DNA from: Patescibacteria group bacterium
GTDB taxonomy: Bacteria; Patescibacteriota; Gracilibacteria; UBA1369; PNNO01
Length of the DNA stretch: 64,000 nucleotides
Reading direction: 5' to 3'
Assembly (NCBI GenBank): GCA_042568575.1
Contig: JBHPIO010000001.1
Span: forward strand, 128,001-192,000
Position numbers and translations under genes: made by a program. Positions 1,376-53,713 of this stretch are shown here, in pieces. Under the pieces are notes generated by a model. That model saw nothing but the letters and a program-made list of their open reading frames with translations, was not told the origin of the DNA and ran no database searches. Position 1 is the first letter of the stretch. Each line of letters starts with the position of its first letter.

Positions 1376-1384
1376 TACAATTCG

Positions 1385-3457: not shown

Positions 3458-3511
3458 AGTAAACCCTCCTTTAAAGGTTTTCCTCATTGTCAAAAATCAA
3501 CTTGGATTAAG

Positions 3512-3539: not shown

Positions 3540-3627
3540 TAGAGCGCACACGAGATTCCTCCCGGGAGGAGATTGACACAATACATTTCTTTCGTATACA
3601 TTGATCTCTTAATTTATTATTTATCAT

Positions 3628-6126: not shown

Positions 6127-6189
6127 ATTTTTAACATTAATTACTTCTCTGATATACTACCAACAAAGCATCTCCTAACAAACTTAAAA

Positions 6190-8126: not shown

Positions 8127-8202
8127 AATAATTTTGGTAATATTTGATTAAAGGAGATGATTATATTTGATCACCAGATTATGTCAAGCAATGTTTGATA
8201 TC

Positions 8203-10974: not shown

Positions 10975-11015
10975 CTAGTAGCTCTCGTTATTAAGAGTAT
11001 GTCTCCCCTATTATT

Positions 11016-11471: not shown

Positions 11472-11917
11472 TATTTACCTTTTATTTCAACTTTAACCTT
11501 TGCGTGAACTTCGTCTGTAAGCTTTACAGTAACTTTGTGCTTTCCAACAGTCTTAATATGTTCAGCCATGTCGATCTGTTTCTTCTTAAGTTTAACTTTC
11601 CCTTGTTCTTCAAGAGCTTTAACAAGTTCTTTTTCACCAATTGATCCGTAAAGTGTATCTTTGTCAGTTGTTTTTTCTTCAAACGTAATAGTTAATCCTT
11701 CAAGCTTCTTTTTGATTTCTTCTGCATTTTTCACAACTTCTTCTTTTTCTTTAACTGACTGTTCTTGCAATTTTTTAGCCCATTCAAGCAAGTTAGGGTT
11801 TGCAACCTTCGCTACTTTGCGAGGAGCAAGAAAATTTCGATAGTATCCGTCTTTAACGTTTTTAACATCTCCTTTTTTCCCGAGATTCTCAACGTTTTTA
11901 GTTAATATAATCTGCAT
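11471..11917 (-). CDS. rplI: 50S ribosomal protein L9
   Basis: MQIILTKNVENLGKKGDVKNVKDGYYRNFL, LYGSI, IKTVGKH. Confidence 0.96.
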   Translation of the reverse strand: MQIILTKNVENLGKKGDVKNVKDGYYRNFLAPRKVAKVANPNLLEWAKKLQEQSVKEKEEVVKNAEEIKKKLEGLTITFEEKTTDKDTLYGSIGEKELVKALEEQGKVKLKKKQIDMAEHIKTVGKHKVTVKLTDEVHAKVKVEIKGK

Positions 11918-12066
11918 CTTATTTAATATTTAGATTGTAAAAATAAAGCAGGGATACGATAGAGGAAAAACACGTTGTTGTAAATGGAAAATTTATTTAA
12001 ATTTGGGAAAGCTTCCGACCGAAAGGTGGGACGACTGCCGGCAGGAACCTGCGGCGGGACGTACGG

Positions 12067-12267
12067 TCATTTAGAACGACCGGAAGCTTGGGAAGGGCCA
12101 TGAATCGCCCTCGACAGGGAGAAACCTTCTTCTCCCAGGCGCGGGACCTGTGCTCGTAGGATCTGCCATCTCCTTTCGCGCTGTTTTGGAGTTCTGGCAC
12201 TATCGGCTTGATATGCCATCCCCAACAAATTCCATGATCTACACATCAGCGTTCTTTCACTCGGCAT
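12067..12267 (-). CDS. Small basic GC-rich hypothetical protein (66 aa)
   Basis: ATG at 12267 preceded by GAGGAGGTG; promoter TTGACA-16-TAGAAT at 12316-12343; GC-rich hairpins downstream (12010-12060). Confidence 0.55.
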   Translation of the reverse strand: MPSERTLMCRSWNLLGMAYQADSARTPKQRERRWQILRAQVPRLGEEGFSLSRAIHGPSQASGRSK

Positions 12268-12371
12268 CGTCACCTCCTCGAGAAATACATGCCCTTGTTT
12301 ATAGAAACCATACGAATTCTAATAGTTATTAGTAATTTGTCAAGCTCCACCTGGGTGGAATCTAAAATTTC

Positions 12372-14240: not shown

Positions 14241-14246
14241 ATACTC

Positions 14247-14462
14247 TTATACAAAAAGATATAAAACTGAACTTGCCACAAAGAGTACCGCAAAAATTAC
14301 AGTCAAATTGAAAAGAACCTTTTCAGCTCCTCTTTTACTAACATGAAATCCTCCAGATCCTCCAAAAGTTGCTGATAACCCAGCACTTCTTTGCTGTGAA
14401 AGGATCGAAAGAATTAAAAGTACTGATACTACGATTTGAAATAGATCTAGAAACGTTTTCAT
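14247..14462 (-). CDS. secG: Preprotein translocase subunit SecG
   Basis: ILSQQRSAGLSATFGGSGG...KRGAEKVLFNLT between two TM helices. Confidence 0.92.
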   Translation of the reverse strand: MKTFLDLFQIVVSVLLILSILSQQRSAGLSATFGGSGGFHVSKRGAEKVLFNLTVIFAVLFVASSVLYLFV

Positions 14463-14470
14463 ATTTTAAT

Positions 14471-14836
14471 TTATTTAAGAATAATGTTTTGCGCCCAGTT
14501 TATTAACCCGAGTACGATTCCTGCAAGCAAATAACTACCAATTCCAGTGAATACTAAAGTAACATCCTGAAACGCCATTGTATTGATAACCCACTGAGTA
14601 AGAAACAAAACTATCGCGTTGATTACAATCAAGAAGAGTCCAGCAGTCAAAACCACAAACGGAAGAGAAAAAATCTTCATAATCGGCTTAATAAAGGCAT
14701 TTATTAGCCCAATAATAACACCACCAATAATAAATAGTTTGAGACCACCTGTCCCAGTTACTTCATCAAGGAATTCGATTAACACATAAAGTGTTACTGC
14801 GTTAAGTGCTATACCTATTAATATGCGTTTAAGCAT
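14471..14836 (-). CDS. 4-TM phage-holin-family (YvlD-like) membrane protein
   Basis: GLINAFIKPIMKIFSLPFVVLTAGLFLIVINA signature. Confidence 0.85.
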   Translation of the reverse strand: MLKRILIGIALNAVTLYVLIEFLDEVTGTGGLKLFIIGGVIIGLINAFIKPIMKIFSLPFVVLTAGLFLIVINAIVLFLTQWVINTMAFQDVTLVFTGIGSYLLAGIVLGLINWAQNIILK

Positions 14837-14924
14837 GTCCTATGAGGTTTAATAAATAGTCGAGTGAAAGTATAGGGAAAATAGAGAAAAAATTCCAGTA
14901 GTTTTAATAATTATTAAAAAATTC

Positions 14925-14952
14925 TTGACGAATATCGAATTAGAACTATAAT
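14925..14952 (+). promoter_or_regulatory. sigma70-like promoter TTGACG-16-TATAAT
   Basis: Near-consensus hexamers upstream of the GC-rich ORF at 15044. Confidence 0.6.
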
Positions 14953-15043
14953 GCGGCCAGTTGTAAATCTAAGCTCTTCGCAACTATGCGAAGGTGCAGG
15001 ATTCATGCATCGCTAATTCACAAACAGGACACGGAGGGAAAGA

Positions 15044-15340
15044 ATGCAGCGTTTCAGGATTGTGAACCATCAGCAAAACCCCGACATGACAGCACTAAGT
15101 CAGAAGAAAAAGAAGTTGCGCTTCTCATTTGCCGTCCAAATCGATGCGGGTGGCAAAGATCGACCGCCCATCACGAAGATGATCACTGTGAAGGCTTCGA
15201 CAGTGACTCGCAAGAACGGGAAATTCGTGATCAAGGCGCAAGTCCAGAGCTCGTCAGCCGCAGAGATCGCCAAAGGTGCGGCCGTGAAAGTGAGCAGCTA
15301 CAGCCCCAACCTCAAAAACGGGGATCTTACGGTCAACTAG
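15044..15340 (+). CDS. Small basic GC-rich hypothetical protein (98 aa)
   Basis: GGAGG SD upstream of the ATG; GC3-rich codons in this frame; hairpins in the 5' and 3' UTRs. Confidence 0.65.
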   Translation: MQRFRIVNHQQNPDMTALSQKKKKLRFSFAVQIDAGGKDRPPITKMITVKASTVTRKNGKFVIKAQVQSSSAAEIAKGAAVKVSSYSPNLKNGDLTVN

Positions 15341-15484
15341 ACCACGGCTCACAGCGCCACTTCAAACGGACTCGGAATGCAAACACCCTTTAACTGCGTA
15401 GCGGTGCCTATCCAGCGGCACACAACCACAAAAAAATCACAAAAGCGGATTAGATTGGAGGATGTGCCGCTTTTTGTAATACGT

Positions 15485-18400
15485 CTACTTCTCCCTCCTT
15501 ACTCCAAGAACAACTTTATGTCCGTCAACTTCAACGGTTTCTTCTAATTCCCACGTAAATTCACTTCCTTGCTGCAATTCAAGTCCAAGGGTTTCTCGTT
15601 TAATGTAGTCAGCAAAATCAGTTACGGCTTGTTCGACATCTCCATCTGTTTTCACCTGAACATAGATGCGCTCAAACACCTCAAATCCCGCTTTCTTACG
15701 CATTTCCTGAATGTATCTGATGATTTCACGAGCATATCCTTCCGATTTTAATTCCGGCGTTATTGTTGTATCTAAAACAACAACAAATCCTGCTTCACCT
15801 TGGACGTCATATCCTTCTTTTCCTTCAAATCCAACTTCAAACTCGTCTTTTTCCAAAGTTACATCGCCAACTTTTATTCGTCCATCTTCAAGCTCTTCAA
15901 AATCACCAGATTTTACCGTTTGGATAATTTTTTGAACATCCTTTCCATGCTTTGGTCCAAGTTTTCGAGCATCCGGCCTAACAACTTTAGTAACGATATC
16001 CCCTACTTCAGTTAACACGTGAAGCTCTTTAACGTTTAGCTCTTCCGTAATAACATCCTTTGACGCCTCAACTATTGCATGATTTACGCTATCAGGCAGA
16101 CCAATTTGAACCTTAGCAAGCGGCTGACGCACCTTAACTCCACTTTTTGCCCTAACACTATGCCCAAGATTCACAATTCTTCTAACAACAGCCATTTCTT
16201 CATTGAGAGACTTATCAATCTTTTTCTTATCCGCAACAGGCCAATCACACAAATGAACCGACTCTTCACACGCCTTGCATGATTTGCTCAAATTTCTATA
16301 CATCTCATCCGCTACAAACGGCATAAAAGGAGCAATCAATTTTGAAAACTCTTTTAACACAACGTAAAGAGTTTGATATGCCTCGTTCTTATCATCATCA
16401 TTTTCCGATTTCCAAAAACGCCTTCGACTTCTTCGGATATACCAGTTCGACAAGTTATCAACAAATTCAATCATAGGACGAGTTCCTTTTGTAAGATTGT
16501 ATGCATCTAATTCCTTTGTCGACTCTTCAGTTAACTGGTGAAGCTCAGATATAATCCACTGATCCAATTTATGCTTTGGCTCAAAATCTCCATTTATCTT
16601 TCCAGGATGCCATTTGTCGATATTCGCATAAGTCACAAAGAAACTGTACGTATTCCATAGTGTTAATAAGAATTTCTTTATCATCTCATCAACATGCGCT
16701 TCCGAGAAACGAACATCTTCCGCAAGTGGCGCAGTCGACGAATAAAGGAAGAATCTAACTGCATCAACCCCTCGAGTATCAAAAAGCATATTCGGATCCG
16801 GATAATTCTTCTTTCGTTTTGAGAGTTTTTCTCCATCCGCAGCAAGAAGTATTCCGTTTACAATCACATTTTCAAAAGCCGACGAATCAAACAGGATAGT
16901 TGCAATCACATGCAGTGTATAAAACCATCCGCGAGTTTGATCGAGCCCTTCTGCAATAAACTGAGCAGGGAAATTCTTTTCAAACTCCTCTTTATTTTCA
17001 AAAGGATAATGAAGCTGCGCATACGGCATTGATCCACTTTCGAACCAACAATCAAGCACTTCGGGAATTCGTTTCATAGATTTTCCACACTTCTCACATT
17101 TAAGTTCAACACTATCAATATATGGCTTATGTAAATCCAAATCACCATGGCGCTCCGGGATTTTACCTCCCGATTTTTCCTTAAGATCATCAACAGATCC
17201 AACACAGGTTTTATGATCACATTCCGTACATTCCCAAATCGGAATTGGACATCCCCAGAATCTATTACGAGAAATCGCCCAATCTCGAGCTCCTTCAAGC
17301 CATTTTCCGAATCGTCCTTCCTGAATATGTTCAGGCTGCCAATGAATTTTCTTATTGTTAGCTTGAAGTTTATCTTTGATATCAGTAACACGAATGAACC
17401 ACGACTTAGTTGTAAAATTAAGCAGTGGAGTATCACATCTCCAACAATGAGGATACGAGTGACGATAATTTTCTTTGCTAAACAAAAGCCCTTCTTCGTG
17501 AAGCCACGTCATAATGTTTTGATCCTGACTTTTCACAAATTTTCCTGCCCACGGCTTAACATCATCAACAAAAGTTCCATCCATATGTACGTGTTGAAGC
17601 ACCTCAAGATCATGTTTCTGACCAAGATGCAGATCATCCTCACCAAACGCAGGAGCAATGTGTACAACACCAGTTCCATCCTCAGTCGACACAAAGTCGG
17701 CAAGCAAAATTACGTATGCTTTTTTCTCTAGTTTGCCTTCAAAAAACGGAAATAGAGGTTTGTACTCTTTTCCTTCAAGAGATTTTGGATCAACATCTTC
17801 CAAAACTTCATAAGGTGTATCCCCCATCACTTTTTCAACTAAATCTTTTGCAAGAATATATTTCTCATTTTCTACAGCAATTTTCACATATTTAACATCT
17901 CCTCCAAACGCAAGCGCAACATTCCCCGGAAGCGTCCAAGGAGTTGTTGTCCATGCAAGAACAAAGGTGTCCGACTCATCTTTTAATGGAAACTTAGCAA
18001 TCACAGAAAGATCCGTAACATCTTTGTATCCCTGACTCACCTCAAAATTCGATAAAGGCGTCTCGCATCTTGGACAAATGTGCATACTTTTGTGCCCCTG
18101 GTAAACCATATCTTTATCCCAAATCTGCTTAAATACCCACCAAATCGATTCCATGTAGTTATTCTCCAGTGTTGCATAACTCTCGCTTGTATCAACCCAT
18201 CGTCCGATTCTTCTTAGGAGCTTTTCCCATTCTTCCGTATACGTAAACACACTTGCACGACATTTGTCGTTAAAGTTCTCCAATCCATATTCTTCGATTT
18301 CTTTTTTACCTGAGATTTCTAGTTCTTTCTCAATTTCATATTCAACAGGAAGTCCATGACAATCCCAACCATTTGTTCGTGGAACGTAATATCCCTTCAT

Positions 18401-30870: not shown

Positions 30871-30979
30871 TGTATCCGCATTGTAGCAAAATTACACTTT
30901 GGCAACAATTTTATATTGCAACAATCGCTGAAAAATGATAAAAAAGATCGTGCAACTTCAGAAACTTGAAATTGATCAT

Positions 30980-31056
30980 GGGCGATTAGCTCAGTTGGCT
31001 AGAGCACCTGGTTTACACCCAGGGGGTCGTAGGTTCGAATCCTACATCGCCCACCA
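30980..31056 (+). tRNA. tRNA-Val(TAC)
   Basis: GGGCGAT/ATCGCCC + ACCA, anticodon arm CCTGG-TTTACAC-CCAGG, T arm GTAGG-TTCGAAT-CCTAC. Confidence 0.97.
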
Positions 31057-31120
31057 AAAAAAGTTCACAAAGTAGAAAAAGTTGTTTCTGCTTTTTTTGA
31101 TATACGCAAATTTATTTTCA

Positions 31121-31150
31121 TGGAGCTCATTAATAAACGAAGTGCGAACT
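31121..31150 (+). repeat. att-like site 1: TGGAGCTC-ATTAATAAACGAAGTG-CGAACT
   Basis: Right arm nearly identical to site 2; the ~60-bp left flank (31058-31120) is repeated before site 4. Confidence 0.8.
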
Positions 31151-31246
31151 GGTAATGCAATATAATAGCTCCGAACAACGTATGAAATTCGAACCAATTT
31201 TTTCCAAAATAAAGTCTATAAAATGGGAATATGTTAAAATATTTCC

Positions 31247-32428
31247 ATGAGCTTAAAAAAGTACAACATCAAATCCAAGAATATTCCAATAATGTACGCG
31301 ACTACAGTAATTGGGGGTATGCTGTTCTTTCTACCTGTAATTGCACTTTATTATGAAGAAACTCTTTTTTCAGTTACTAATGTTGCATTAATTTTTGCTG
31401 TTGAATATTTTGCTTCAGTGATTTTTGAAGTTCCAACAGGTGCAATTGCTGACCTTTTTGGAAGAAGAAAAACAATTATTTTAGATCATTTTATAACTTT
31501 AATAGCTTTAGTATTTTTATTTATTGGAGGGAGTATGACAATGTTCATACTTTATGCAGTTTTTAATGCTCTAGCAATGAGTCTTGCTAGTGGAACAGAT
31601 AGCGCACTCATTTACGATTCACTAAAAGAAGAAGGTAAAGAAAAACACTATAAAAAAATTATTGGTACTTATCATGCATTGTGGCCTTTAGGTGCTTCAA
31701 TAGGATCAATAATAGGTGGATATTTAGCAGCAGTATCTTTAAATTTTCCAGTTTTGATTACATTTATTCCAATTACAATTGCTCTAATTTTCACTTTCTT
31801 CCTTAAAGAACCTAAATATGAAAAAGAGGGACATAAAAATATTTTTAAACAAATGTTTCATTCTTCAAAATTTATACTCAATAATGGTCAAATAATTATT
31901 TTGATATTAGCCGGATTTTTATTCTTTGGATTTGGAGAATCAATGCATCATTTAAGTCCTTTATTTTTCAAATTTCATGAAATCCCTATAATTTATTTTG
32001 GTTATATAGTAGCTGCTTCATTTGCATTTTCTTCATTAGGTCATTACTTTTCGCATGATGTTTCTGAATTTCTCGGAGATAAAAAAGCCTTAATTGCTGC
32101 TGCTTGCCTTTCTCCTGTATTTGTAATACTTGCAACATTTAATACAGGAATTACCGTTGCCATATTATTTATAATTCCATCAATCTTTTTTGGAATCAGA
32201 AATCCAATTATTGATAATTATATAAATTTGGAAGTCACCTCAAGTAAAAGAGCTACTGTTTTATCAATAAATAATTTATTAAATAGTTTTGGATTTGTTT
32301 TTATAGCTCCTTTAGTCGGATATCTCGCCGAACTCTACACTATAAATATGGCTTTTAGAATAAGTGCTGGATTTGTTGTACTAAGAGTGTTTGTATATTT
32401 ACTTTTAAAAGATAAGGAAACGGCTTAA
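31247..32428 (+). CDS. MFS transporter
   Basis: FEVPTGAIADLFGRRKT (MFS motif A), SGTDSALIYDSL, about 12 TM segments. Confidence 0.92.
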   Translation: MSLKKYNIKSKNIPIMYATTVIGGMLFFLPVIALYYEETLFSVTNVALIFAVEYFASVIFEVPTGAIADLFGRRKTIILDHFITLIALVFLFIGGSMTMFILYAVFNALAMSLASGTDSALIYDSLKEEGKEKHYKKIIGTYHALWPLGASIGSIIGGYLAAVSLNFPVLITFIPITIALIFTFFLKEPKYEKEGHKNIFKQMFHSSKFILNNGQIIILILAGFLFFGFGESMHHLSPLFFKFHEIPIIYFGYIVAASFAFSSLGHYFSHDVSEFLGDKKALIAAACLSPVFVILATFNTGITVAILFIIPSIFFGIRNPIIDNYINLEVTSSKRATVLSINNLLNSFGFVFIAPLVGYLAELYTINMAFRISAGFVVLRVFVYLLLKDKETA

Positions 32429-32444
32429 GCAAGCCATAAATCCT

Positions 32445-32474
32445 TGGAGCTCCTTATGGAACGAAGTGCGAACT
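32445..32474 (+). repeat. att-like site 2: TGGAGCTC-CTTATGGAACGAAGTG-CGAACT
   Basis: 16 nt after the MFS stop; left flank CGGCT..CAAGCCAT shared with site 3. Confidence 0.8.
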
Positions 32475-32535
32475 AGAGGAATAATTTGACATATTTTCTT
32501 TTTCTTGTAGTATTGATCCCCATTATTATATATGT

Positions 32536-33276
32536 ATGGAATCAAAAAAACTATATGTCATTTCATCCTTACATCAAGCAGAAGGGCAATCTTGGGAAAC
32601 TATTGATAAAATTGAAAATATCCGTGAAATAAGGATGCTAGTTATTGAAGCTATAGCACGGACTATTCAAACGGGTGGTATTTTTATTGATGGATCAACT
32701 GCAAAAGATGCTACTGAAGATAATAAGATTATTGATGAAGAAAGTTTAGATGACATTAAATCAAGAAACAGTATAGCTTTTGCAATGAGATATATAGATC
32801 CAAAGAAATTTGATATTGGTAAAACATATGAATTATTTAAATGTTTAAGGCAAGATGGTTTAAAATTCGAATTTAAACATACTGAAGATTGTGAGATGAG
32901 TGAAGTTATGGAATTTTATAGACCTTTGATTGAAGCTGATCCTGAATTCCAAGAATTTATTAAAACATGCAAATCTCAAGAAGAGTTTAGTGAATTTATT
33001 TTTAAAAAATTTCTTGAACTACGAGACAAGAGGATAATAAACAATATAATTACGAATGGCGAAGATGAGAATATACTTTTTATAGGATCCGATCATGAAT
33101 TAGCAGATTTAGAAGCATCGCAATTAGACTTTTATAGAGTAGAGGTTTCTATGAATGTTGAAACAGTTTTAATTACAGGAAAGCTTCCTGTAAAATTTGA
33201 AAGTAATTTAAGAAAATTTGTTACTGAAATGACAGATGAAGGGGGAAAAGTGGAAATAGACATTAGATACATTTAA
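32536..33276 (+). CDS. Acidic hypothetical protein (possible TraB/EreA/ChaN-superfamily-like RD...GxxH motif)
   Basis: 246-aa ORF with own promoter TTGACA-16-TAGTAT (32486-32513); LRDKRIINNII...ILFIGSDH. Confidence 0.7.
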   Translation: MESKKLYVISSLHQAEGQSWETIDKIENIREIRMLVIEAIARTIQTGGIFIDGSTAKDATEDNKIIDEESLDDIKSRNSIAFAMRYIDPKKFDIGKTYELFKCLRQDGLKFEFKHTEDCEMSEVMEFYRPLIEADPEFQEFIKTCKSQEEFSEFIFKKFLELRDKRIINNIITNGEDENILFIGSDHELADLEASQLDFYRVEVSMNVETVLITGKLPVKFESNLRKFVTEMTDEGGKVEIDIRYI

Positions 33277-33312
33277 CCGTTTTCGGCTCATACAAGCCAT
33301 TTCTCAAGGTCC

Positions 33313-33398
33313 TGGAGCTCCTTACTGGAATTGAACTAACTAAATTATTTCACCCATTTCCAACCGAAACCCTATTTTTCCGCATAAACCAAAGCACA
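33313..33398 (+). repeat. att-like site 3 (antisense tRNA-3'-end-like) plus ~60-bp right flank shared with site 5
   Basis: TGGAGCTCCTTACTGGAATTGAAC...CCATTTCCAACCGAAACCCTATTTTTCCGCATAAACCAAAGCACA. Confidence 0.8.
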
Positions 33399-33429
33399 AA
33401 CAAAAAATAAGTTTTTAACAAGAAGGTGG

Positions 33430-33479
33430 TTGACTCTATTTTAAATATATTGTATAATATATGTAGTGATCATTGAAAA
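33430..33479 (+). promoter_or_regulatory. Promoter TTGACT-17-TATAAT followed by boxA-like TGATCATTGAAAA
   Basis: The boxA-like motif differs at one base from TGATCCTTGAAAA in the 23S rRNA leader of this window. Confidence 0.65.
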
Positions 33480-33762
33480 ATATATGAAACTTGGAGCGCA
33501 AATGGTGATAAATTTGAAATTATTTATCTCTAATTGTGCCTCAAGTTTTGAATAGCAAGAATAGGCCTGGTTATAAACTTTCCCAAAGGTTTATAGTCAC
33601 TGTAAACTCGTTCTAAACGGGCTTGGTGTTTAGAGAAAAGTAACAGACAGATTATAAGTTAAGGTGACTTAATTTACAGGAAATTAGTTCAGTGATGTAT
33701 TAATTTTTACTTTAAACTCTTATCTGCTGCCGAAAGTGCTATTTGAAACTTGGGGCTTTTTT
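33465..33762 (+). ncRNA. Candidate ~300-nt structured non-coding RNA of unknown family
   Basis: 20-bp closing stem 33538-33557/33737-33756 (3 G-U pairs) followed by T6; internal hairpins; no ORF of 60 aa or more. Confidence 0.55.
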
Positions 33763-34073
33763 GTATGACCTTATTTCCAAGCACAAACAAAAAATAAGTT
33801 AAAACAGGCTTGTTACCATGCTTAAGCATGCGTATGAGTGCGAAGCACGAATCGGATGATTAAGTACAACGTAGCGAAGCGGAGTGTTTTAAGGTTGTGC
33901 AAATTTATCTCGAGGCCGAAGGCCGAGAGAACCTTTTCGTTCTGCAACGAAGGGCAAATCGTTAGATTTTATTTGCAAATTTGAGCAAAACCCTATTGCA
34001 TAAAAAGTTCACAAAGTTGAAAAAGTAGAAAAAGTTGGTTTTGCTTTTTTTTATATTCATAGATTTATTAGCT

Positions 34074-34103
34074 TGGAGCTCCCTTCTGGACGTTAATCGA
34101 ACC
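34074..34103 (+). repeat. att-like site 4: TGGAGCTC-CCTTCTGGACGTTAAT-CGAACC
   Basis: Preceded (34002-34073) by a diverged copy of the tRNA-Val 3' trailer and terminator that precede site 1. Confidence 0.8.
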
Positions 34104-34288
34104 TCTCAAAAAAATTAGTATTTTTAATTAAGGACTTTTCTAAATTTAAAACAGACTTATAAGTCAGAAAAATACCATCTGGTTCTTATTTTATTATTCC
34201 AAGCAATACCAGATGATTTACAAAATAAATTTTTTCTGATATAATAAACAGATTCTTGGAACGAATACAAAAAATAGAATTAAAACAA

Positions 34289-35356
34289 ATGGTTAAAAAA
34301 CCAAAAAAAATCGTTCCAGTAAAGAAAGTAAAAAAAAGGATTAAGAAAAGAAAATCTTTAAATTTTTTAAATAAATCAAAACATAATCCAATAATCGAAC
34401 CCATAAAAGAAAATGGCTGGGAATCTTGGCAAACTTTTAATCCGGGTGTAATTCAAATTGATAATAAAGTATATTTTATTTATAGAGCAATTGGTGAAGA
34501 TGGAGTTTCCCGTTTTGGTTTTGCCGTATCCAATGATGGATTTGTTATTGAAGATCGTCTGCCTTATCCAATTTATGAACATAAAACAAATGAAAGCAAA
34601 TTTTATTATTATTCGTATCTATCAGGTGGCAGCTTTGGTGGATGCGAAGATCCCCGACTTGTGCAAATAGAAGGTGAAGATGAATTATATATATCTTATA
34701 CTGCATGTGACAACGGTTTACGAATGGCTTTAAATTCAATTAAAATCGATGATTTTGAAAATCAGAAATGGAAATGGAAAGAATCTAAACTAATTTCACC
34801 ACCACAGGAAGTTCACAAAAATTGGCTTATTTTCCCCGAAAAAATCAATGGGAAATATGCGCTTCTCCATAGTATTAAACCGGATATTCAAATAGAATAC
34901 ATGGAGGATTTAGAATTTAATAATGATTCATTTATTGAAAGTATATATAAGGCTGGTCCCCAAAAAGGATGTTGGGAAAAATGGGTAAGAGGTGCTGGTC
35001 CCCCACCAATAAAGACTAAAGATGGGTGGCTATTATTTTATCATGCCATGGACGACGACTTTAGTAAGTACAAACTTGGTGTTATGCTGCTTGACCTTAA
35101 AGATCCCACCAAAGTTTTATATCGGGCAAAAGAACCTATTTTAGAACCAAATGAGACTTATGAAAATTGCGGTTACAAATCCGGGGTTATTTATGCTTCC
35201 GGCACTATTGTAAAAGATGGCAATTTACTTGTATATTATGGTGGAGCTGATAGTTATGTTTGTGTAGCTTATGCACCACTTGGTAAATTTCTTAAAGCTT
35301 TGAAAGAAAATTCACATCCAGTCCTCAAAACGAAAAAATTAAGAACTAAAAAATAA
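34289..35356 (+). CDS. GH130-like glycosidase/mannoside phosphorylase (five-bladed beta-propeller)
   Basis: NPII.P...WES..TFNPG, GCEDPRL, KNWLIFPEKINGKY, GAGPPPIKTKDGWLLFYH, VYYGGADS. Confidence 0.88.
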   Translation: MVKKPKKIVPVKKVKKRIKKRKSLNFLNKSKHNPIIEPIKENGWESWQTFNPGVIQIDNKVYFIYRAIGEDGVSRFGFAVSNDGFVIEDRLPYPIYEHKTNESKFYYYSYLSGGSFGGCEDPRLVQIEGEDELYISYTACDNGLRMALNSIKIDDFENQKWKWKESKLISPPQEVHKNWLIFPEKINGKYALLHSIKPDIQIEYMEDLEFNNDSFIESIYKAGPQKGCWEKWVRGAGPPPIKTKDGWLLFYHAMDDDFSKYKLGVMLLDLKDPTKVLYRAKEPILEPNETYENCGYKSGVIYASGTIVKDGNLLVYYGGADSYVCVAYAPLGKFLKALKENSHPVLKTKKLRTKK

Positions 35357-35360
35357 TTTT

Positions 35361-37277
35361 ATGCTTGCTGAACGCTCTGAATCAAATCCAATTTTAAAAC
35401 CTGATATTACTCATTCCTGGGAAGCAGAAGCTGTTTTTAATGGTTGCCCTATTAAAAAGGACGGGAAAACTTATTTTGTTTATCGTGCAACTTCTCTTCC
35501 TCATTTCCATAAGTTAGCTAATTCGCTACTTAAAGTATCAAATATAGGGATTGCAGAAAGTGACGATGGTGTTAATTTTGAAAACCGTAAATGTTTTATT
35601 TCTCCCGAACATTCCTGGGAAAAATTCGGATGTGAAGATCCAAGAATTACTAAACTGGGAGCAAAATATTTTATTTTTTATACAGCTCTTAGTACCTACC
35701 CTTTCAATGCTGAAGGTATAAAAGTAGGAGTCGCTATTAGTAAAGATCTAAAAACAATTGAAAAAAAACATCTTGTCACACCTTTTAATGCTAAAGGTAT
35801 GGCTCTTTTCCCAGAGAAAATTAATGGTAAAATCTGGTCAATTTTAACAGTTAACACCGATTCACCTCCATCGAAAATATGTCTAGCATCCTTTAATAAT
35901 GAAGAAGAGATATGGAGTAAATCATATTGGGATGAATGGTATGAAAATTTTGAAAATCATTCACTCCCTTTTGTTAGAAGCCCTCAAGACCTTGTTGAAG
36001 TAGGTGCCCCGCCAATTAAAACAGCAAAAGGCTGGCTTATAATATATTCCTATATTAAAAATTATTTTTCAAATAATCCGCTTTTTGGAATTGAAGCAGT
36101 TCTTCTTGATCTTAAAGATCCTTTAACAATTATTGGTAAAACTACTGAGCCTTTTTTAACACCTGAGGAATATTATGAAAAAATTGGAATTGTCCCAAAT
36201 ATTGTATTCCCCACGGGTGCATTGTTAGAAAAGAACAATATAAACCTTTATTACGGTGCAGCTGATACAACTTGTTGTTTAGCAGTTATTAACAAAAAAG
36301 CCTTACTAAATAAATTATTAAAAAAAGGAATATCAGGAAAATTAATAAGATCTAAGAACAATCCTATAATTGTTCCAGACGAAACCCATCCATGGGAATC
36401 AAAAGCTACATTTAATCCTGCGGCACTTTGCATAGATGGTAAAGTGCATCTAATCTATCGGGCTTTATCTGGAGACAATACATCTGCTTTGGGATATGCA
36501 ACCAGTAGTGATGGATATAATATCGACTATCGCAGCGAAAATCCTGTTTTTATCCCCATGGAACCTTTTGAGCTAAAAAAATCACCTGGAAATAATTCCG
36601 GTTGTGAAGATCCCCGTCTTACATTAATTGGGGATACCATTTATATGCTTTATACTGCTTTTGACGGTGTGAATTTGCCTCGAGTAGCATTCACTTCAAT
36701 TTCAGTAAAAAATTTTATTGATCAAAAATGGAATTGGGAAAAACCGGTTTTAATAACACCTCCTTATTTGGATGATAAAGATGCATGCCTGTTTCCCGAA
36801 AAATTTAATGGAAAACATATAATTATACATAGATATGGTGATGATATGGATCTAGCTTTCCCCTCGGATTTAAATTTTGATGGTAAAACCTGGATTGAAG
36901 AATATAGATGGCTTTCTCCCAGAGCCGGTATGTGGGATAGTAAAAAAGTTGGAGTTTCAGCTCCCCCAATAAAAACTAAAAAAGGATGGATTCTTTTTTA
37001 TCATGGGGTCTCCGATGATTCGTGTTATCGATTGGGTGCTGTACTGCTTGATCTAAAAGATCCGGTTAAAATTATCGCAAGGTCAGATGATCCAATTCTT
37101 GAACCGGAAATGTATTATGAAAAAGAAGGTATTGTAAAAAATGTAGTATTCCCGTGCGGCGCAGTTTTGAAAGATGATAAAATATTCGTTTATTATGGAG
37201 GGGCTGATAAAGTTACAGGTGTTGCAACTATTAAACTGGAAAAACTCCTAAAGCATCTGAAAGCATGTAAAAGTTAA
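35361..37277 (+). CDS. Tandem double-domain GH130-like glycosidase
   Basis: Two full sets of FN.., GCEDPR, FPEK.NGK, PPIKT.KGW, N.VFP.GA and YYG.AD motifs. Confidence 0.88.
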   Translation: MLAERSESNPILKPDITHSWEAEAVFNGCPIKKDGKTYFVYRATSLPHFHKLANSLLKVSNIGIAESDDGVNFENRKCFISPEHSWEKFGCEDPRITKLGAKYFIFYTALSTYPFNAEGIKVGVAISKDLKTIEKKHLVTPFNAKGMALFPEKINGKIWSILTVNTDSPPSKICLASFNNEEEIWSKSYWDEWYENFENHSLPFVRSPQDLVEVGAPPIKTAKGWLIIYSYIKNYFSNNPLFGIEAVLLDLKDPLTIIGKTTEPFLTPEEYYEKIGIVPNIVFPTGALLEKNNINLYYGAADTTCCLAVINKKALLNKLLKKGISGKLIRSKNNPIIVPDETHPWESKATFNPAALCIDGKVHLIYRALSGDNTSALGYATSSDGYNIDYRSENPVFIPMEPFELKKSPGNNSGCEDPRLTLIGDTIYMLYTAFDGVNLPRVAFTSISVKNFIDQKWNWEKPVLITPPYLDDKDACLFPEKFNGKHIIIHRYGDDMDLAFPSDLNFDGKTWIEEYRWLSPRAGMWDSKKVGVSAPPIKTKKGWILFYHGVSDDSCYRLGAVLLDLKDPVKIIARSDDPILEPEMYYEKEGIVKNVVFPCGAVLKDDKIFVYYGGADKVTGVATIKLEKLLKHLKACKS

Positions 37278-37288
37278 TGTTTTTTCAA

Positions 37289-37370
37289 TGGAGCTCCCTC
37301 CTGGGATCGAACTGACTTTCATTATCCATTTTCAACCAGAACCCTGTTTTTCCGCATAAACCAAAGTACA
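37289..37370 (+). repeat. att-like site 5 (antisense tRNA-3'-end-like) plus right flank shared with site 3
   Basis: Reverse complement reads G-TTCGATC-CCAGG-AGGGAGC-T-CCA; 11 nt after the GH130 stop. Confidence 0.8.
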
Positions 37371-37450
37371 CTCCGTCGTACTTGACTATCCGATTCTCTA
37401 TGCTCATCGCATGTTTAGCATCATACGCAGATTCAAGTACAAACAGAAAC

Positions 37451-37596
37451 TTGACATACATCCCAACATAACGTATCGTAGCCGCATGATGAACGCAAAA
37501 AAAATCACAATTATATCTAACCATAAAACCTCTTAATCTGAGGTCTGTTTGCATATCTAATATTTATTTAAGACCTCAGAATGAGGCCTTTTTTTT
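37451..37596 (+). promoter_or_regulatory. Promoter, 16-aa leader ORF and alternative antiterminator/terminator hairpins (attenuator-like)
   Basis: TTGACA-17-TATCGT; ORF 37486-37536 MMNAKKITIISNHKTS; TCTGAGGTCT (37537-46) pairs with AGACCTCAGA (37571-80), which overlaps the terminator GACCTCA-GAA-TGAGGCC-T8. Confidence 0.55.
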
Positions 37597-37746
37597 ATTA
37601 TGAATGATTTAGTTATATTACAAAAAGTACATATATGGTGCGGTGATACGTGCTGTAAATTAATCCATCAAATCTGATAGTGAAAAATTTACAACCACGA
37701 CACCTGCAAATTTGTATGTGTTTTTTTATTTATATAACTAATTATT

Positions 37747-38517
37747 ATGAATACTAGAGAAAAAATTGTTGGAATCCCCAAAAACACACGTTTAAAGGAG
37801 GATGTCCAACCAATTCTTAATAAAGCATTAAAGCTGGAAGATTGTAATAATGGTATATGGCGAAGCCCCTTTCTTGATGACACAAGGTTTGTAGAAATGA
37901 AAATCGCTGACCTTATCATGGCTCTTAGAAGGCGATTTGTAGACCTTGCTCTTATTTCAGACGACAAAGGTTTGGAAGAAGAAGCTAAGCCAAAGAATGA
38001 AGAAAGGATGGAAAGATGTTTTGGACTTCGTATAGAGAAGCCACCTGTAATGAGAGCATTGGTGCGAGAAGAAGATAAGGATAAAATGACTGACAGAATC
38101 TTTGGGGCTTATTACAAAGAGCCTGTTTATAGCGGGGAGAAGGCGGTCACTTCCTATCCTGAGTTAATGCGTTATTATGTCAGGACAAAACTCGGAAAAC
38201 TTCTTCAAAGCTGCAATATCTGGAAGGTGGATGGCCAAGTGGAAAGCTTTATGAGAAATGGTGTATTGCCTAATACAGTTCTCGCTTATGACATTGTTAG
38301 AAGCGGCGATACTGCTCGAAAATTTGGACTTGTTCCAGTAGATGCTGATCAAACATGTGACCCAGCATATAAGGCTTATCCAAGTTTTTGGAGAAATGAA
38401 AGGCTTTTACCTTATCAGAAAAAATATATACAAAAAGTTTTACCTGAAATTATGCTTCGATTAGGTTCCGAGGTTGAAATTGATAATAGGAACACAAGAG
38501 AAGTCTTAACGGGATAA
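37747..38517 (+). CDS. Divergent HisG-like ATP phosphoribosyltransferase (short form)
   Basis: IVGIPK, VDLALISDD, VTSYP, VDGQVE and DIVRSGDTARKFGL follow HisG motif order but are degenerate. Confidence 0.6.
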   Translation: MNTREKIVGIPKNTRLKEDVQPILNKALKLEDCNNGIWRSPFLDDTRFVEMKIADLIMALRRRFVDLALISDDKGLEEEAKPKNEERMERCFGLRIEKPPVMRALVREEDKDKMTDRIFGAYYKEPVYSGEKAVTSYPELMRYYVRTKLGKLLQSCNIWKVDGQVESFMRNGVLPNTVLAYDIVRSGDTARKFGLVPVDADQTCDPAYKAYPSFWRNERLLPYQKKYIQKVLPEIMLRLGSEVEIDNRNTREVLTG

Positions 38518-38526
38518 ACTGAATAT

Positions 38527-38556
38527 AAAAAGGGCGTAGAAAATCTGCGCCCTTTT
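38527..38556. terminator. Bidirectional intrinsic terminator
   Basis: AAAAAGGGCGTAGA-AAA-TCTGCGCCCTTTT between convergent genes. Confidence 0.75.
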
Positions 38557-38620
38557 GTAGTCACGAAAAGAGTTTTAACATCGTCATCCACTATTTTCAA
38601 TAGAAACTCTATTGCGTAAA

Positions 38621-39364
38621 TCATCTACCTCTAAAAAAAGCTTCCTCCGCTTCATACAGGCGCCTTTGTTTTTCATCTAATTCAGCAAGTCTTTGCTTGG
38701 TTTCAAAGATTATAATCCTTGCACCCCCGGATTCTAAAGACTCAACACCCAGTTGAGGATAGAAATCGAATGATGCGTTATAGAGACCTCTCCCTCGCTG
38801 CCTTCCTGCTTCATTTGGTTGCAATAGTTTATCTCTATTTATTTCACCGGACATTAACTGTGTTATCTTTTCAATTAATACGGCAGCGGAATTAGGTTGC
38901 TCAATTGAACAAAGCACACAATCAACTCCAACTTTTGCGTTTACTATTATGCTACCTGTAGCACAATAATCACTTCCATGTTCAATTGCGTTATAAAGAA
39001 ATTCCAACACTAAACGAGGAAACCTTTCCTGATGGTGCTTCTGATTTTCGTCAAGCATTTCATACCACTGACGTATAGGTAAGTACAATCTTAAAGCTAC
39101 CAATCTTCCTAAATTTTCGTTAACTATTCCTAACTTTTCCTTTGCCATCAATCCTCCAGGAATATCATTGAAACGAATATCCTCTTCTAAAAGATTATTT
39201 GTATGAACAGCCACTCCACTTCTTAGAGCTTCATCAGCAATTGCACAAGTTTCTTTATAAAGTGAAACAACAAGGTCATCACTTGTGATTTCCAAAGCTG
39301 TGACCTGCTTCATATCACCAAGCTCCGATTCTGCCTCCTGTAATGTTAATTCTGGCTTAATCAT
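38621..39364 (-). CDS. GHKL/HATPase-like (RsbW anti-sigma kinase-like) protein, divergent
   Basis: N-box LEFLYNAIEHG and G2-like RGRGLY; own promoter TTGACA-16-TATGAT (39391-39418). Confidence 0.6.
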   Translation of the reverse strand: MIKPELTLQEAESELGDMKQVTALEITSDDLVVSLYKETCAIADEALRSGVAVHTNNLLEEDIRFNDIPGGLMAKEKLGIVNENLGRLVALRLYLPIRQWYEMLDENQKHHQERFPRLVLEFLYNAIEHGSDYCATGSIIVNAKVGVDCVLCSIEQPNSAAVLIEKITQLMSGEINRDKLLQPNEAGRQRGRGLYNASFDFYPQLGVESLESGGARIIIFETKQRLAELDEKQRRLYEAEEAFFRGR

Positions 39365-39470
39365 GATCAAATAAAAAAAGAATAGGTTTCATCATATCCA
39401 TTTTTGGATTGATGTCAACTTTCTGGTATAATGTCTTTTGGTGTATATAAATTTTAACTTTTCACTTATC

Positions 39471-50336: not shown

Positions 50337-50452
50337 TCTTGGCAGCGCCCTACTCTCCCACAACTCATGCTGCAGTACCATCGGCGAAGAGTGGCTTAAC
50401 TTCTGTGTTCGGGATGGGAACAGGTGTACCCCACTCTCAAGAGCTACCAAGA
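50337..50452 (-). rRNA. rrf: 5S rRNA
   Basis: Reverse complement contains CACCTGTTCCCATCCCGAACACAGAAGTTAAG...GCCGATGGTACT...GGGAGAGTAGG, with terminal stem TCTTGG/CCAAGA. Confidence 0.97.
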
Positions 50453-50598
50453 CAGTGGCTTTTAAAGCTACTGTCTAAAATTGACATGTTATTTCCACAA
50501 ATTGCTAGTCTTAGCACTAATTTAGTGCCGGTACTAAATCCCTAAAAAATATGGGGACTTAGCACCAACACCGCCGTGCTAAAAAATACGTTTTAAAT

Positions 50599-53588
<2,990 letters not shown>

Positions 53589-53713
53589 ATTTTTATATTA
53601 AAACGTACATATCACGTCAGCGAACTGACATGATTGACTAGCAATTCGTAAAAATAACAACGAATCACTAGATTTTTATTACAAAGTGTTCAATTTGTGG
53701 TTATAAACTCTAA

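Follow-up and report, generated by a model that had tools for sequence, protein, structure and literature searches.

Integrons are composed of an integrase (IntI), an attachment site (attI), and gene cassettes bounded by attC sites. Xer-dependent modules carry no recombinase gene; they are bounded by sites of ~28 bp and depend on a host enzyme acting in trans, and in pdif modules the orientation of the sites alternates. Bacteria of the Candidate Phyla Radiation (CPR) have tiny genomes, and gene exchange among them is little understood. Tandem islands and cis-mobilizable elements that arise by accretion at tRNA or tmRNA genes are exemplified by the Dehalococcoides ssrA islands and the ICESt1-related elements (available portions of PMC3146451 and PMC5704250), and 16 of the Dehalococcoides islands are described with an integration module that includes a serine recombinase (PMC3146451, available portion).

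Here, an array of five repeated sites was analyzed in a 64,000-nucleotide stretch of DNA from a Patescibacteria group bacterium, referred to below as the window. Protein uL30 is absent, which fits the Candidate Phyla Radiation. We propose, with a probability of roughly 0.6, that the motifs are five members of a family of attachment-type sites that occurs across this order of bacteria with small genomes.

Results

Five sites separate small gene modules in the window

The core TGGAGCTC occurs five times within positions 31057 to 37370, on the + strand every time (Table 1). Shuffled sequence contained a mean of 1.36 copies, and five or more were reached in 1 of 100 shuffles. The core is followed by YGAAC after a 16-nt gap at sites 1, 2, and 4 and an 11-nt gap at sites 3 and 5; positions and spacings reproduced those of a preliminary description of the locus. 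The sites are 24 to 30 bases long and separate modules of accessory genes. Although the core alone has 41 copies on the two strands of the whole 1.2-Mb assembly, copies of the site family number seven (five in the window, one at C28:767, and one variant on contig C15). The motif is thus not a genome-wide terminator or regulatory repeat with many scattered copies, the possibility against which the preliminary description had set its own reading. The 30-mer of site 2 exactly matches sites on contig C17 of genome G010 and on metagenome contigs, and site 4 is close to the site at C28:767 and to sites in genomes G008 and G010.

A degenerate copy had been suspected at 31166 to 31195. A similar stretch is present at 31165 to 31195, but it is rated only as plausible because two core positions are mismatched and the spacing is 18 nt. 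The five sites do give similar translations, as first pointed out; this likeness is attributed to conservation of the nucleotide sequence, and some members of the site family contain an in-frame TGA.

Table 1. Coordinates of the array and its neighborhood in the window (spacing, nt between core and YGAAC)
Feature	Position	Strand	Remarks
tRNA-Val(tac), intact	30980..31056	+	ARAGORN; Rfam 74 bits
L arm copy 1, native tRNA-Val trailer, up to core 1	31057..31120	+	
Site 1, cassette type	31121..31150	+	16-nt spacing; core, TGGAGCTCA
Candidate decayed site copy	31165..31195	+	2 core mismatches; 18-nt spacing; read from sequence
MFS transporter, cassette gene	31247..32428	+	Pfam MFS_1, E 2.8e-33
Small hairpin, tail of MFS cassette	32420..32437	.	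GGCTT, 4 nt, AAGCC
Site 2, cassette type	32445..32474	+	16-nt spacing
246-aa protein without known family, cassette gene	32536..33276	+	
Site 3, anchor type	33313..33336	+	11-nt spacing; tRNA 3'-end layout on - strand
R arm copy 1	33337..33413	+	
Non-coding spacer between two units	33414..33999	.	
L arm copy 2	34000..34073	+	
Site 4, cassette type	34074..34103	+	16-nt spacing
Two GH130 genes, cassette cargo	34256..37277	+	Pfam
Site 5, anchor type	37289..37312	+	11-nt spacing
R arm copy 2	37313..37370	+	
~60-nt hairpin module copy	37371..37440	+	
Remaining DNA missing from G001 locus	37441..39420	.	
Weak HisG-like ORF	37747-38517	+	
ORF without known family	38621-39370	-	

The AT-rich modules first listed between the sites (MFS transporter, protein without known family, non-coding spacer, and GH130 genes) were recovered, with a G+C content of 32.1% in the array region versus 39.1% in the remaining window. 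The 246-aa protein had no Pfam match and no relative in genome_contigs. The GH130 genes lie at 34256-35356 and 35361-37277, the latter encoding a double GH130. Cargo stop codons precede cores 2, 3, and 5 by 16, 36, and 11 nt, respectively, within the 11 to 36 nt initially reported. Downstream of sites 2, 3, and 4, promoter-like sites match at 10 to 11 of 12 positions (consensus matches only); such sites stand at 32486-32513, ahead of the 246-aa gene, and at 34217-34245, ahead of the GH130 pair. From these matches, the cassettes may have promoters of their own. Within the spacer, a strong promoter-like site stands at 33430-33458, positions 33785-33811 correspond to part of a third R-arm copy, and the hairpin module recurs in inverted form at about 33812-33880.

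Arms are exchanged at the core

Arms of 60 nt were compared, with the 95th percentile of identity between random 60-mers of the window at 0.62. Identity reached 0.80 both for the left arms of sites 1 and 4 and for the right arms of sites 3 and 5, which upholds two of the shared arms described earlier. A third pair, the left arms of sites 2 and 3, was borderline (0.62), and both of these arms contain the same small hairpin. The fourth did not stand: ACGAAGTGCGAAC, common to sites 1 and 2 and described as a right arm, is located within the site and not past it. Arms have been swapped at the core, in that sites 1 and 4 are alike on the left only and sites 3 and 5 on the right only.

The first 48 nt of L arm copy 1 match the DNA that follows tRNA-Val in genome G006 at 90% identity, and this copy is 83% identical to 34013-34081. 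R arm copy 1 shares 79% identity with 37305-37370 and 84% with the DNA that follows tRNA-Val in genome G001, which belongs to the window's own genus. Elsewhere, the ~60-nt hairpin module is found after tRNA CCA ends or within long-form sites, and hairpins resembling the one at the tail of the MFS cassette stand ahead of many family sites. The L- and R-arm duplication is not accounted for by the cassette model proposed below. Since the window arms are just ~80% alike, the events are old, and the window array itself may be a fossil.

tRNA-Val is a neighbor of the array

The preliminary description took tRNA-Val as the platform of the array. That assignment was not supported: the sites read antisense to tRNA-Val, which is therefore a neighbor and not the anchor, and in the family at large the anchor is tRNA-Gly (once tRNA-Thr), with the sites in the sense of the tRNA. 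The window contains no intact anchor tRNA. Sites 3 and 5 had also been interpreted as tRNA 3' ends. Read antisense, both have the corresponding layout, but no upstream 5' T-stem partner was found and neither site gave a tRNA call. A tRNA with their 3' end was present in none of the 204 other genomes of the order (a search that CCA-less tRNA genes would escape), among none of the own genome's 24 tRNAs, and nowhere in genome_contigs; sites 3 and 5 copy none of the tRNAs found.

A site family is spread across the order

A scan of the genome and its relatives, as had been suggested, revealed that family-like 29-mers occur in ~20 of the 205 genomes of the order (counted by reading the match list), mostly at 2 to 7 per genome and clustered inside a few kilobases. 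The usual site is 29 to 30 nt long and consists of TGGAGCTCC, nine variable bases, and GANGTKCGAAC. In all, 78 sites were gathered, from the window and from 47 other sources of low G+C content. Because the site lists were collected with patterns that fixed the core and GAAC, their conservation profile is biased. Site-to-site spacings (n = 28) had a median of 1308 bp and a range of 529 to 3927 bp. No match to the site pattern was found in viral_contigs.

Compared with a tRNA 3' end, the usual site has 5 additional nt (a spacing of 23 nt versus 18), and long-form sites contain about 56 nt in the would-be central region. Two conserved blocks, each near an 8-bp palindrome (GGAGCTCC and GTTCGAAC), were self-complementary but not mutually complementary among 52 distinct 30-mers. 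In the same set, inner candidate pairs averaged 2.3 of 4, versus 2.0 with the partners slid by 2, and 13 of 1000 shuffles reached the observed value.

A co-oriented ORF ends within 120 nt upstream of just 36 of the 78 sites, so that the cassette layout is not uniform. Family cargo includes MFS and GH130 proteins, M19 and M15 peptidases, a Phd/YafQ-like toxin-antitoxin pair, a Res restriction-enzyme subunit, an ArsP-like permease, glyoxalase, and SLH proteins. Modules are often as small as one gene in 0.5 to 1.5 kb; a 720-bp toxin-antitoxin pair is an example of a small module. TrmB-like winged-helix proteins are recurrent next to sites.

Many family sites lie 3' of tRNA-Gly, and exchange maps to GCTCCA

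A tRNA-Gly gene was nearby in 20 of 47 loci. All 38 sites of these 20 loci lie 3' of the tRNA, in the same sense, and end in GCTCCA like the tRNA; in these loci, but not in the window, the array starts at a tRNA 3' end and has the same orientation. The ten anchor tRNAs inspected (nine tRNA-Gly and one tRNA-Thr(ggt)) all end in GCTCCA. Identity between tRNA-Gly and the sites is limited to these 6 nt and a T-loop-like block, a short match by the standard of classical tRNA attachment sites.

At four sites (L011:7662, L011:10260, L039:5919, and L034:139), the 40 nt right after CCA are 75 to 95% identical to tRNA-Gly trailers, and the sequence upstream of GCTCCA differs; at these four, a native trailer has been displaced to a position after a distal repeat. 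An 858-nt cassette (93% identity) follows tRNA-Gly(ccc) in locus L066 and a site in locus L039, and one L039 site has lost its core. By these comparisons, the view that the sites behave as recombination junctions delimiting mobile modules is supported.

Cargo turns over among relatives

Comparison of the locus across relatives, as had been suggested, showed differences in cargo. In G001, about 620 bp stand in place of window positions 31057-39420 (8.4 kb), and the R arm is joined to the tRNA-Val 3' end, the "wrong" side of a site, which a simple integration model does not predict. In G008 and G010, two genomes of one genus, the tRNA-Gly flanks are 72 to 81% identical and the sites are kept, yet there is no cargo in common. 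The GH130 pair between sites 4 and 5 is 82% identical over 3019 nt to a pair in the tRNA-Gly array of G008, which belongs to another genus and in which the module is bounded by degenerate and long-form sites; the pair was not found in five closer relatives (G001, G006, G010, G002, and G004).

Recombinase genes are absent from the arrays

Pfam searches identified a recombinase in 0 of 40 proteins (10 ORFs around the window array and 30 ORFs of other arrays). When the genome's four tyrosine recombinases were compared by tblastn with the window and 56 related loci, none was found beside sites or in the window; the lone match, in locus L024, adjoins tRNA-Lys about 5 kb from the sites. The array had been described as free of recombinase genes, and this holds for the window and, beside the sites, for all 56 loci.

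Xer-like tyrosine recombinases were equally present in genomes with and without sites. In some genomes with arrays, namely G008 (one gene) and G099 (two), no other kind of recombinase was detected. Serine recombinases were not found in four of five array-bearing genomes. On contig C2 of the window's own genome, an integrase gene lies 63 nt downstream of tRNA-Thr(ggt), with two tRNA-Thr-like 3' fragments 8.8 and 9.4 kb further on. The family of this integrase is present in 33 of 205 genomes and adjoins tRNA-Thr(ggt) in 21 of the 30 loci examined; it was next to tRNA-Gly in none of the 30.

Discussion

Because sites of this family mark exchangeable cassettes next to tRNA genes in many relatives, the array looks like part of a system for gene capture with an enzyme encoded at another locus. 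The preliminary description of a gene-capture platform survives with respect to the sites as junctions of mobile modules and the lack of an enzyme in cis, but not with respect to tRNA-Val as the platform or sites 3 and 5 as tRNA copies.

Read on the strand opposite TGGAGCTC, a site comprises a GTTCGAAC-like block, about 12 nt, and GGAGCTCCA, and thereby roughly imitates a tRNA 3' end. We propose that each cassette is made up of a tail, between one and three genes, which would often have a promoter of their own, and a single site. Conservative site-specific recombination, in or adjacent to GCTCCA, would link cassettes head to tail; tRNA-Gly, the usual anchor, ends in the same six bases. Growth would occur downstream of the anchor and leave the old anchor trailer after a later site. 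The enzyme would act in trans, most likely as a tyrosine recombinase, and circular intermediates may be formed. Under this model, the window would hold two units side by side: L arm, site 1, MFS gene, site 2, no-family gene, site 3, and R arm, followed by L arm, site 4, two GH130 genes, site 5, and R arm. Sites 3 and 5, which have real-tRNA spacing, would play the role of the anchor as relics without a tRNA body, and sites 1, 2, and 4, with 5 more nt, would be those carried by cassettes. The array has the opposite polarity to tRNA-Val, whose trailer (the L arm) would only abut it.

In its broadest form, the proposal is integron-like gene capture native to the whole CPR order, in which integrase-less cassettes with a 29-bp site are placed at GCTCCA of tRNA-Gly, tRNA-Thr, or a relic by an unlinked chromosomal recombinase. 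We advance this form tentatively and consider it somewhat doubtful; the recombinase is possibly a Xer-like enzyme or an integrase domesticated at tRNA-Thr. A full-text literature search (not exhaustive) found no description of such a system. If this form is true, bacteria would have invented cassette arrays a second time, independently, and streamlined genomes would have a means of sampling accessory genes. Cassettes anchored at tRNA-Gly would then explain the swapping of transporters, glycan enzymes, toxin-antitoxin pairs, and defense genes without a recombinase in each element, and the defined 29-bp site and crossover (GCTCCA) would be testable at the bench.

The arrays could instead be fossils of self-encoded integrative elements at tRNA-Gly whose integrases were deleted, leaving scars and leftover cargo without any trans enzyme; phage-like or mobilizable islands would have been inserted serially, and what is left would resemble remnants of cis-mobilizable elements. 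Tandem accretion followed by decay is well documented (PMC5704250 and PMC3146451, available portions), contig C2 provides a classical integrase-bearing example in the same genome, and the diverged window arms (about 80%) and the coreless L039 site fit decay. However, an integrase adjoins none of the 78 sites, and modules that often hold one gene in 0.5 to 1.5 kb are too small for island remains unless decay was always extreme. Moreover, several families of the order share the conserved 29-mer, with a constant 5-nt difference from its supposed source tRNA, and the tRNA-Thr(ggt)-type integrases do not adjoin tRNA-Gly (0 of 30 loci). We consider the fossil explanation unlikely.

It is considerably less probable that the 29-mer is a cis element, such as a regulator or nucleoid-protein site, an insulator, a terminator, or an RNA-processing signal, with modularity arising by homologous recombination after DNA uptake. 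The near-palindromic blocks GGAGCTCC and GTTCGAAC would suit a dimeric DNA-binding protein, TrmB-like proteins recur next to sites, and sites often stand right after stop codons, near hairpins or bidirectional terminators. Nevertheless, seven copies in a genome are not a general signal, site orientation tracks the anchor tRNA (38/38) and not the flanking genes, the 6-nt identity at the tRNA-Gly junction is too little for homologous recombination, and mid-site pairing is unconvincing (2.3 of 4 versus 2.0 slid by 2; 13 of 1000 shuffles). Least probable of all is that the sites are dif-like targets of the host Xer enzymes, with cassettes that exploit Xer as pdif modules or dif-integrating elements do, since a 28- to 30-bp length with a possible 11-6-11 reading, partly complementary inner arm bases in some subfamilies (CATC/GATG and CTTA/GAAG), the Xer-only genomes G008 and G099, and the scarcity of serine recombinases are outweighed by arm symmetry that is weak and absent from the AATCGAAC subfamily, sites that all point one way in an array where those of pdif modules alternate, a location at tRNA-Gly and not at the replication terminus, long-form sites with about 56 nt in the would-be center, and the same Xer-like genes in site-less genomes.

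Comparison with known systems

The preliminary description had set the locus apart from CRISPR and attC integrons, and both distinctions hold. Unlike CRISPR spacers, the intervals of the arrays are 529 to 3927 bp long and protein coding. The outline does recall integrons, with short, mostly single-gene cassettes, one end site each, one orientation, a fixed platform, and cargo that includes toxin-antitoxin pairs and transporters. In contrast to integrons, the platform is a tRNA 3' end with no adjacent integrase, the 29-mer contains no hairpin-forming imperfect inverted repeat like that of attC, and the cassettes, which in integrons are promoterless and read from a platform promoter, may here have promoters of their own (consensus matches only). 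Xer-dependent modules are likewise recombinase-less and lie between sites of about 28 bp; the arrays differ from them in their weak arm symmetry, direct and not alternating sites, and tRNA-gene location. The tRNA-Thr(ggt) island of contig C2 shares a target tRNA ending in GCTCCA and tRNA-like 3' fragments downstream, but its integrase directly follows the tRNA, and the repeats of the island, which include a proper T arm, are genuine 3' halves of a tRNA rather than copies of the 29-mer.

The closest resemblance is to tandem islands at tRNA and tmRNA genes. As far as the available portions of PMC3146451 and PMC5704250 describe them, these islands and the arrays both lie downstream of a small RNA gene with strain-specific cargo, and in both a conserved motif unmatched by the RNA gene stands just upstream of the repeat and some units are without integration genes. 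Every island unit ends in a direct repeat of the RNA gene's 3' end; the sites that bound the array units share GCTCCA and a T-loop-like block with such an end. The arrays differ in that no unit of the 56 loci has an integrase, unlike 16 of the Dehalococcoides islands; units are mostly single-gene and about 1.3 kb; and identity to the anchor spans 6 nt and not about 20 nt, with a site 5 nt longer than the tRNA end. We class the array as a variant of tandem site-specific accretion at tRNA genes.

Sites, arms, and cassettes in the window

Five copies of the core TGGAGCTC lie on the + strand of the 64-kb window and are followed by YGAAC after 16 nt (sites 1, 2, and 4) or 11 nt (sites 3 and 5), in agreement with the preliminary description in both position and spacing. 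In shuffled versions of the window, the core occurred 1.36 times on average, and five copies were reached in 1 of 100 shuffles; counted over both strands, the full 1.2-Mb assembly has 41 copies. The combinatorial flanks reported earlier were also recovered: over 60 nt, identity is 0.80 between the left arms of sites 1 and 4 and also 0.80 between the right arms of sites 3 and 5, relative to a 95th percentile of 0.62 for random 60-mers from the window. A small hairpin on the left side is common to sites 2 and 3, and ACGAAGTGCGAAC, inside the site, is common to sites 1 and 2.

The ORFs between the sites encode an MFS transporter, a 246-aa protein, one GH130, and one double GH130 (Pfam), and the distance from the end of the stop codon to the next core is 16 nt for core 2, 36 nt for core 3, and 11 nt for core 5. 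The 246-aa protein had no Pfam match and zero relatives in genome_contigs. G+C content is 32.1% in the cassette block versus 39.1% in the remaining window, and promoter-like sequences follow sites 2, 3, and 4. An Rfam search of positions 30900 to 37800, with E values up to 10, returned tRNA-Val only.

Positions of the sites, units, and neighboring features (window coordinates unless a contig [C] or fetched locus [L] is named)
Feature	Location	Strand	Remarks
Site 1, core	31121	+	
Site 2, core	32445	+	
Site 3, core	33313	+	
Site 4, core	34074	+	
Site 5, core	37289	+	
Unit 1	31057-33413		L arm, core, cassettes, core, R arm
Unit 2	34000-37370		L arm, core, cassettes, core, R arm
Near-consensus promoter and following ~300 nt	33430-33775		Within the spacer between units
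Terminator-like hairpin	33607-33621		Downstream of that promoter
~60-nt hairpin repeat	37371-37440	+	
~60-nt hairpin repeat	~33812-33880		Inverted
~60-nt hairpin repeat, elsewhere in own genome	C1:213651; C27:65879; C1:5560; C1:194633; C2:3526-3580		
Weak HisG-like ORF	37747-38517		After the window array
23S and 5S rRNA genes	50337-53589	-	No 16S in window (Rfam)
Site copy in own genome	C28:767		Near tRNA-Gly(tcc)
TrmB-like ORFs	L013:809-1543; L070:2696-3430; L034:1100-1888; L075		L013 is own C28; three ORFs in L075
Histidine-synthesis run	L021:10535-17980		HisIE-like, HisA/F-like; after last site of G099 array
Inverted site pair	L029 (G103:C11): 5854 and 11451	+ and -	5.6 kb apart
Island at tRNA-Thr(ggt)	own C2 ~5900-15910 (L083)		
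tRNA-Gly(acc) call	own C2:49086-49159		ARAGORN
Short ORF, ~72 codons	L019 (G001:C10)		~60-280 nt after tRNA-Val

The site family and its tRNA-Gly anchor

A scan of the window's own genome and its relatives showed that the motif forms a family. Beyond the window, the own genome carries one further copy near a tRNA-Gly gene and one variant on contig C15, for a total of seven family copies in two places. Approximately 20 of the 205 genomes of the order, most of which are incomplete bins, contain family-like 29-mers (loose pattern, by reading the match list), usually as two to seven copies per genome inside a few kilobases. The other loose-pattern matches look like chance in coding DNA, and the two that were checked fall in a SecD/F-like gene. 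A stricter pattern returned 42 metagenome stretches and no matches in viral_contigs; eight of the 42 (>50% G+C, likely chance matches in other organisms) were excluded before family counts. With site sets defined by these author-made patterns, 78 sites were collected over the window and 47 low-G+C sources, with a median site-to-site spacing of 1308 bp (range, 529 to 3927; n = 28). In its usual form the site reads TGGAGCTCC, then nine variable bases, then GANGTKCGAAC, a profile that is biased because the search patterns fixed both ends; both conserved blocks are near-palindromes. The ribosomal protein uL30 went undetected in all nine genomes searched from the group and was detected in 13 of 14 controls. 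Candidate Phyla Radiation bacteria generally lack uL30, and its absence here fits membership in that radiation.

A tRNA-Gly gene (tcc, gcc, or ccc) is present in the fetched DNA of 20 of the 47 loci, and in these 20 loci every site (38 of 38) lies 3' of the tRNA-Gly and in the tRNA sense. Read in that sense, the site consists of a GTTCGAAC-like block, ~12 nt, and then GGAGCTCCA. All nine tRNA-Gly genes whose sequence was inspected end in GCTCCA. One site is likewise 3' of a tRNA-Thr(ggt), and that tRNA also ends in GCTCCA.

Two further observations concern the tRNA genes and the site copies. Among the 24 tRNAs found in the own 82%-complete assembly, a tRNA-Gly(acc) has no CCA end, unlike the other 23, and may be a false or decayed call. 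One locus (L029) carries two identical site copies in inverted orientation, whose flanks are also identical over at least 50 nt; this could represent an invertible segment or an assembly effect.

Homology boundaries at the core and cargo turnover

At four sites, the 40 nt from the base after CCA are 75 to 95% identical to native tRNA-Gly trailers, and the sequence before GCTCCA at the same sites is unrelated to tRNA. An 858-nt cassette directly follows tRNA-Gly(ccc) in one locus (L066); its 93% identical counterpart in another (L039) comes after a site that itself lies ~790 nt past a tRNA-Gly(gcc). The homology between the two begins at GCTCCA and ends in the body of the next site, and in L039 the site after the shared cassette is without its core.

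Comparison across relatives bore out the variable cargo proposed in the preliminary description. In two genomes of one genus (G008 and G010), the genes upstream of tRNA-Gly, the tRNA itself, and its trailer are common at 72 to 81% identity; downstream, only the sites and 50 to 120 nt around them are common, and all cargo differs. Homology of the window to G001, a genome of the same genus, extends as far as tRNA-Val (79.7%) and resumes at position 39420 (80.3%), with ~620 bp at the array position versus 8.4 kb in the window. The two GH130 genes between sites 4 and 5 match, at 82% identity over 3019 nt, a module of the tRNA-Gly array in G008, which belongs to another genus. The housekeeping flanks of the window's genome and G008 are ~75% identical. 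On its upstream side that module borders on a degenerate long-form site (long-form sites carry an extra ~56 nt inside); on its downstream side, one further gene separates it from a long-form site. The GH130 protein was not found in G001, G006, G010, G002, or G004 at an E value of 1e-30 or better.

Cargo in and around the arrays includes peptidases and proteases (M19, M15, and an SDH-type protease), DUF4037, TrmB-like regulators, DUF4256, SLH proteins, a glyoxalase, an ArsP-like permease, a Phd/YafQ-like pair, a Res subunit, DUF4143, and histidine-synthesis genes. TrmB-like winged-helix proteins (~245 aa) recur beside sites, with the stop codon abutting the site in two loci; they are mutually only 23 to 30% identical and may be either cargo or an accessory factor that binds DNA. 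Downstream of the window array is a weak HisG-like ORF, and a histidine-synthesis run comes after the last site of the G099 array; arrays may thereby carry biosynthetic genes in genomes that are usually without them.

A ~60-nt repeat that forms a conserved hairpin also occurs in the window and elsewhere in the own genome. Several compensatory changes preserve the pairing of its stem, CUUAAGCAU with AUGAUUAAG, in which one internal mismatch does not vary. The repeat starts right after the CCA of tRNA-Lys and tRNA-Gln, is tandem on C2, lies between the two conserved blocks inside long-form sites (L020, L026, and L011), and has no match in Rfam.

Two units beside tRNA-Val

The left (L) arm is the native tRNA-Val trailer, and its first 48 nt recur at 90% identity after tRNA-Val in G006. 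The right (R) arm is the sequence after tRNA-Val in G001, in which the R arm is joined straight to the tRNA. The unit of L arm, core, cassettes, core, and R arm is present twice in the window. The sense of the array is opposite to that of tRNA-Val, and therefore tRNA-Val is a neighbor of the array and not its platform.

The gap from GTTCRA to GCTCCA is 18 nt in sites 3 and 5, the last of each unit, the same as in real tRNA-Gly genes, and 23 nt in sites 1, 2, and 4, like cassette-borne sites elsewhere. Because of this difference in spacing, we read sites 3 and 5 as putative anchor-type relics and sites 1, 2, and 4 as probably cassette-delivered. Read antisense, as in the preliminary description, sites 3 and 5 have the layout of a tRNA 3' end; ARAGORN and Rfam found no tRNA body at either site, and the five bases before the T-loop-like block are unable to pair with the would-be T stem. 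In searches that genes not encoding CCA would escape, a tRNA with this 3' end was absent from the 204 other genomes of the order, and the tRNA-like 24-mer had zero matches in genome_contigs. Two 24-nt lookalikes (G008:C23 and G201:C75) were rejected as chance, both lying inside a SecD/F-like gene.

The spacer between the two units contains a near-consensus promoter (TTGACT, 17 nt, TATAAT) and then ~300 nt with only a 23-codon ORF, together with a terminator-like hairpin, and may hold a small RNA or small-peptide gene. At the position of the cassette block, G001 has a short ORF whose product, by eye, looks like a ribbon-helix-helix antitoxin.

Search for a recombinase

The absence of a recombinase from the array was confirmed. 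Pfam searches detected no recombinase domain in 40 ORFs in and around the arrays, and tblastn with the four tyrosine recombinases of the own genome against 56 loci and the window placed none beside the sites; the sole match (L024) is beside tRNA-Lys, ~5 kb from sites. Two of these four enzymes are Xer-like, encoded on contigs C12 and C6, and two are at tRNA-Thr(ggt) on C2; no serine recombinase was found in the own genome. Serine recombinases were found in one of five array-bearing genomes. Xer-like genes in array-bearing genomes (one in G008, two in G099) are equally present in genomes without sites. Of the 205 genomes of the order, 33 carry the tRNA-Thr(ggt) integrase family, which adjoins tRNA-Thr(ggt) in 21 of 30 loci and tRNA-Gly in none of the 30. 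This family is present in 6 of ~20 site-bearing genomes (by reading match lists), a phyletic link too weak to use.

The own C2 contig carries an island of the classical kind at tRNA-Thr(ggt), with one integrase gene beginning 63 nt past the tRNA and a second close by. Farther downstream, at 8.8 and 9.4 kb, are two tRNA-Thr-like 3' fragments whose trailers are homologous.

ALTERNATIVES

The serious alternative is that ordinary islands with their own integrases decayed and left the arrays as their remains. This reading is opposed by the complete absence of integrases beside 78 sites, the very small size of the modules, and the constant 5-nt difference from the tRNA end. For a dif-like site with 11-6-11 arms, inner pairs average 2.3 of 4 versus 2.0 with partners slid by 2; the observed value was reached in 13 of 1000 shuffles, and dif-like or hairpin symmetry in the site is weak. 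A general regulatory or terminator repeat, a reading weighed from the outset, is unlikely given the few, clustered genome copies and an orientation that tracks the anchor tRNA, not the flanking genes. A small RNA gene ending at GGAGCTCCA was rejected, as the DNA upstream in that orientation serves as the next gene's promoter. The similar translations of the five sites, noted in the preliminary description, do not reflect a protein-coding motif, since some members carry in-frame stops on either strand; nor are the sites CRISPR repeats, as had been argued, since the intervals are genes.

Comparison with known systems

Among described systems, those closest to these cassette arrays are the tandem islands found at tRNA or tmRNA genes. 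A non-exhaustive search of the literature, including PMC12455944 and bioRxiv 2024.03.08.584096, turned up no account of arrays like these in such bacteria; the supplements of PMC3146451 and PMC12455944 may bear on the comparison. By analogy, the arrays would resemble integron cassette arrays in function; unlike integrons, they have no IntI and no attC-like fold, a distinction drawn correctly at the start. In Dehalococcoides, a 20-bp repeat of the ssrA 3' end delimits the islands located downstream of that gene, and immediately before the repeat there is a conserved 15-bp motif with no match to ssrA; a serine-recombinase module is present in sixteen islands (PMC3146451). For units without that module, cis-mobilizable elements were suggested (PMC3146451; for the definition, see PMC5704250). 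The present arrays follow the same tandem-island logic as these islands. They differ in that their units all lack a recombinase and mostly consist of a single gene, the identity with the anchor is only 6 nt rather than a 20-bp repeat, and the site is conserved over an order.
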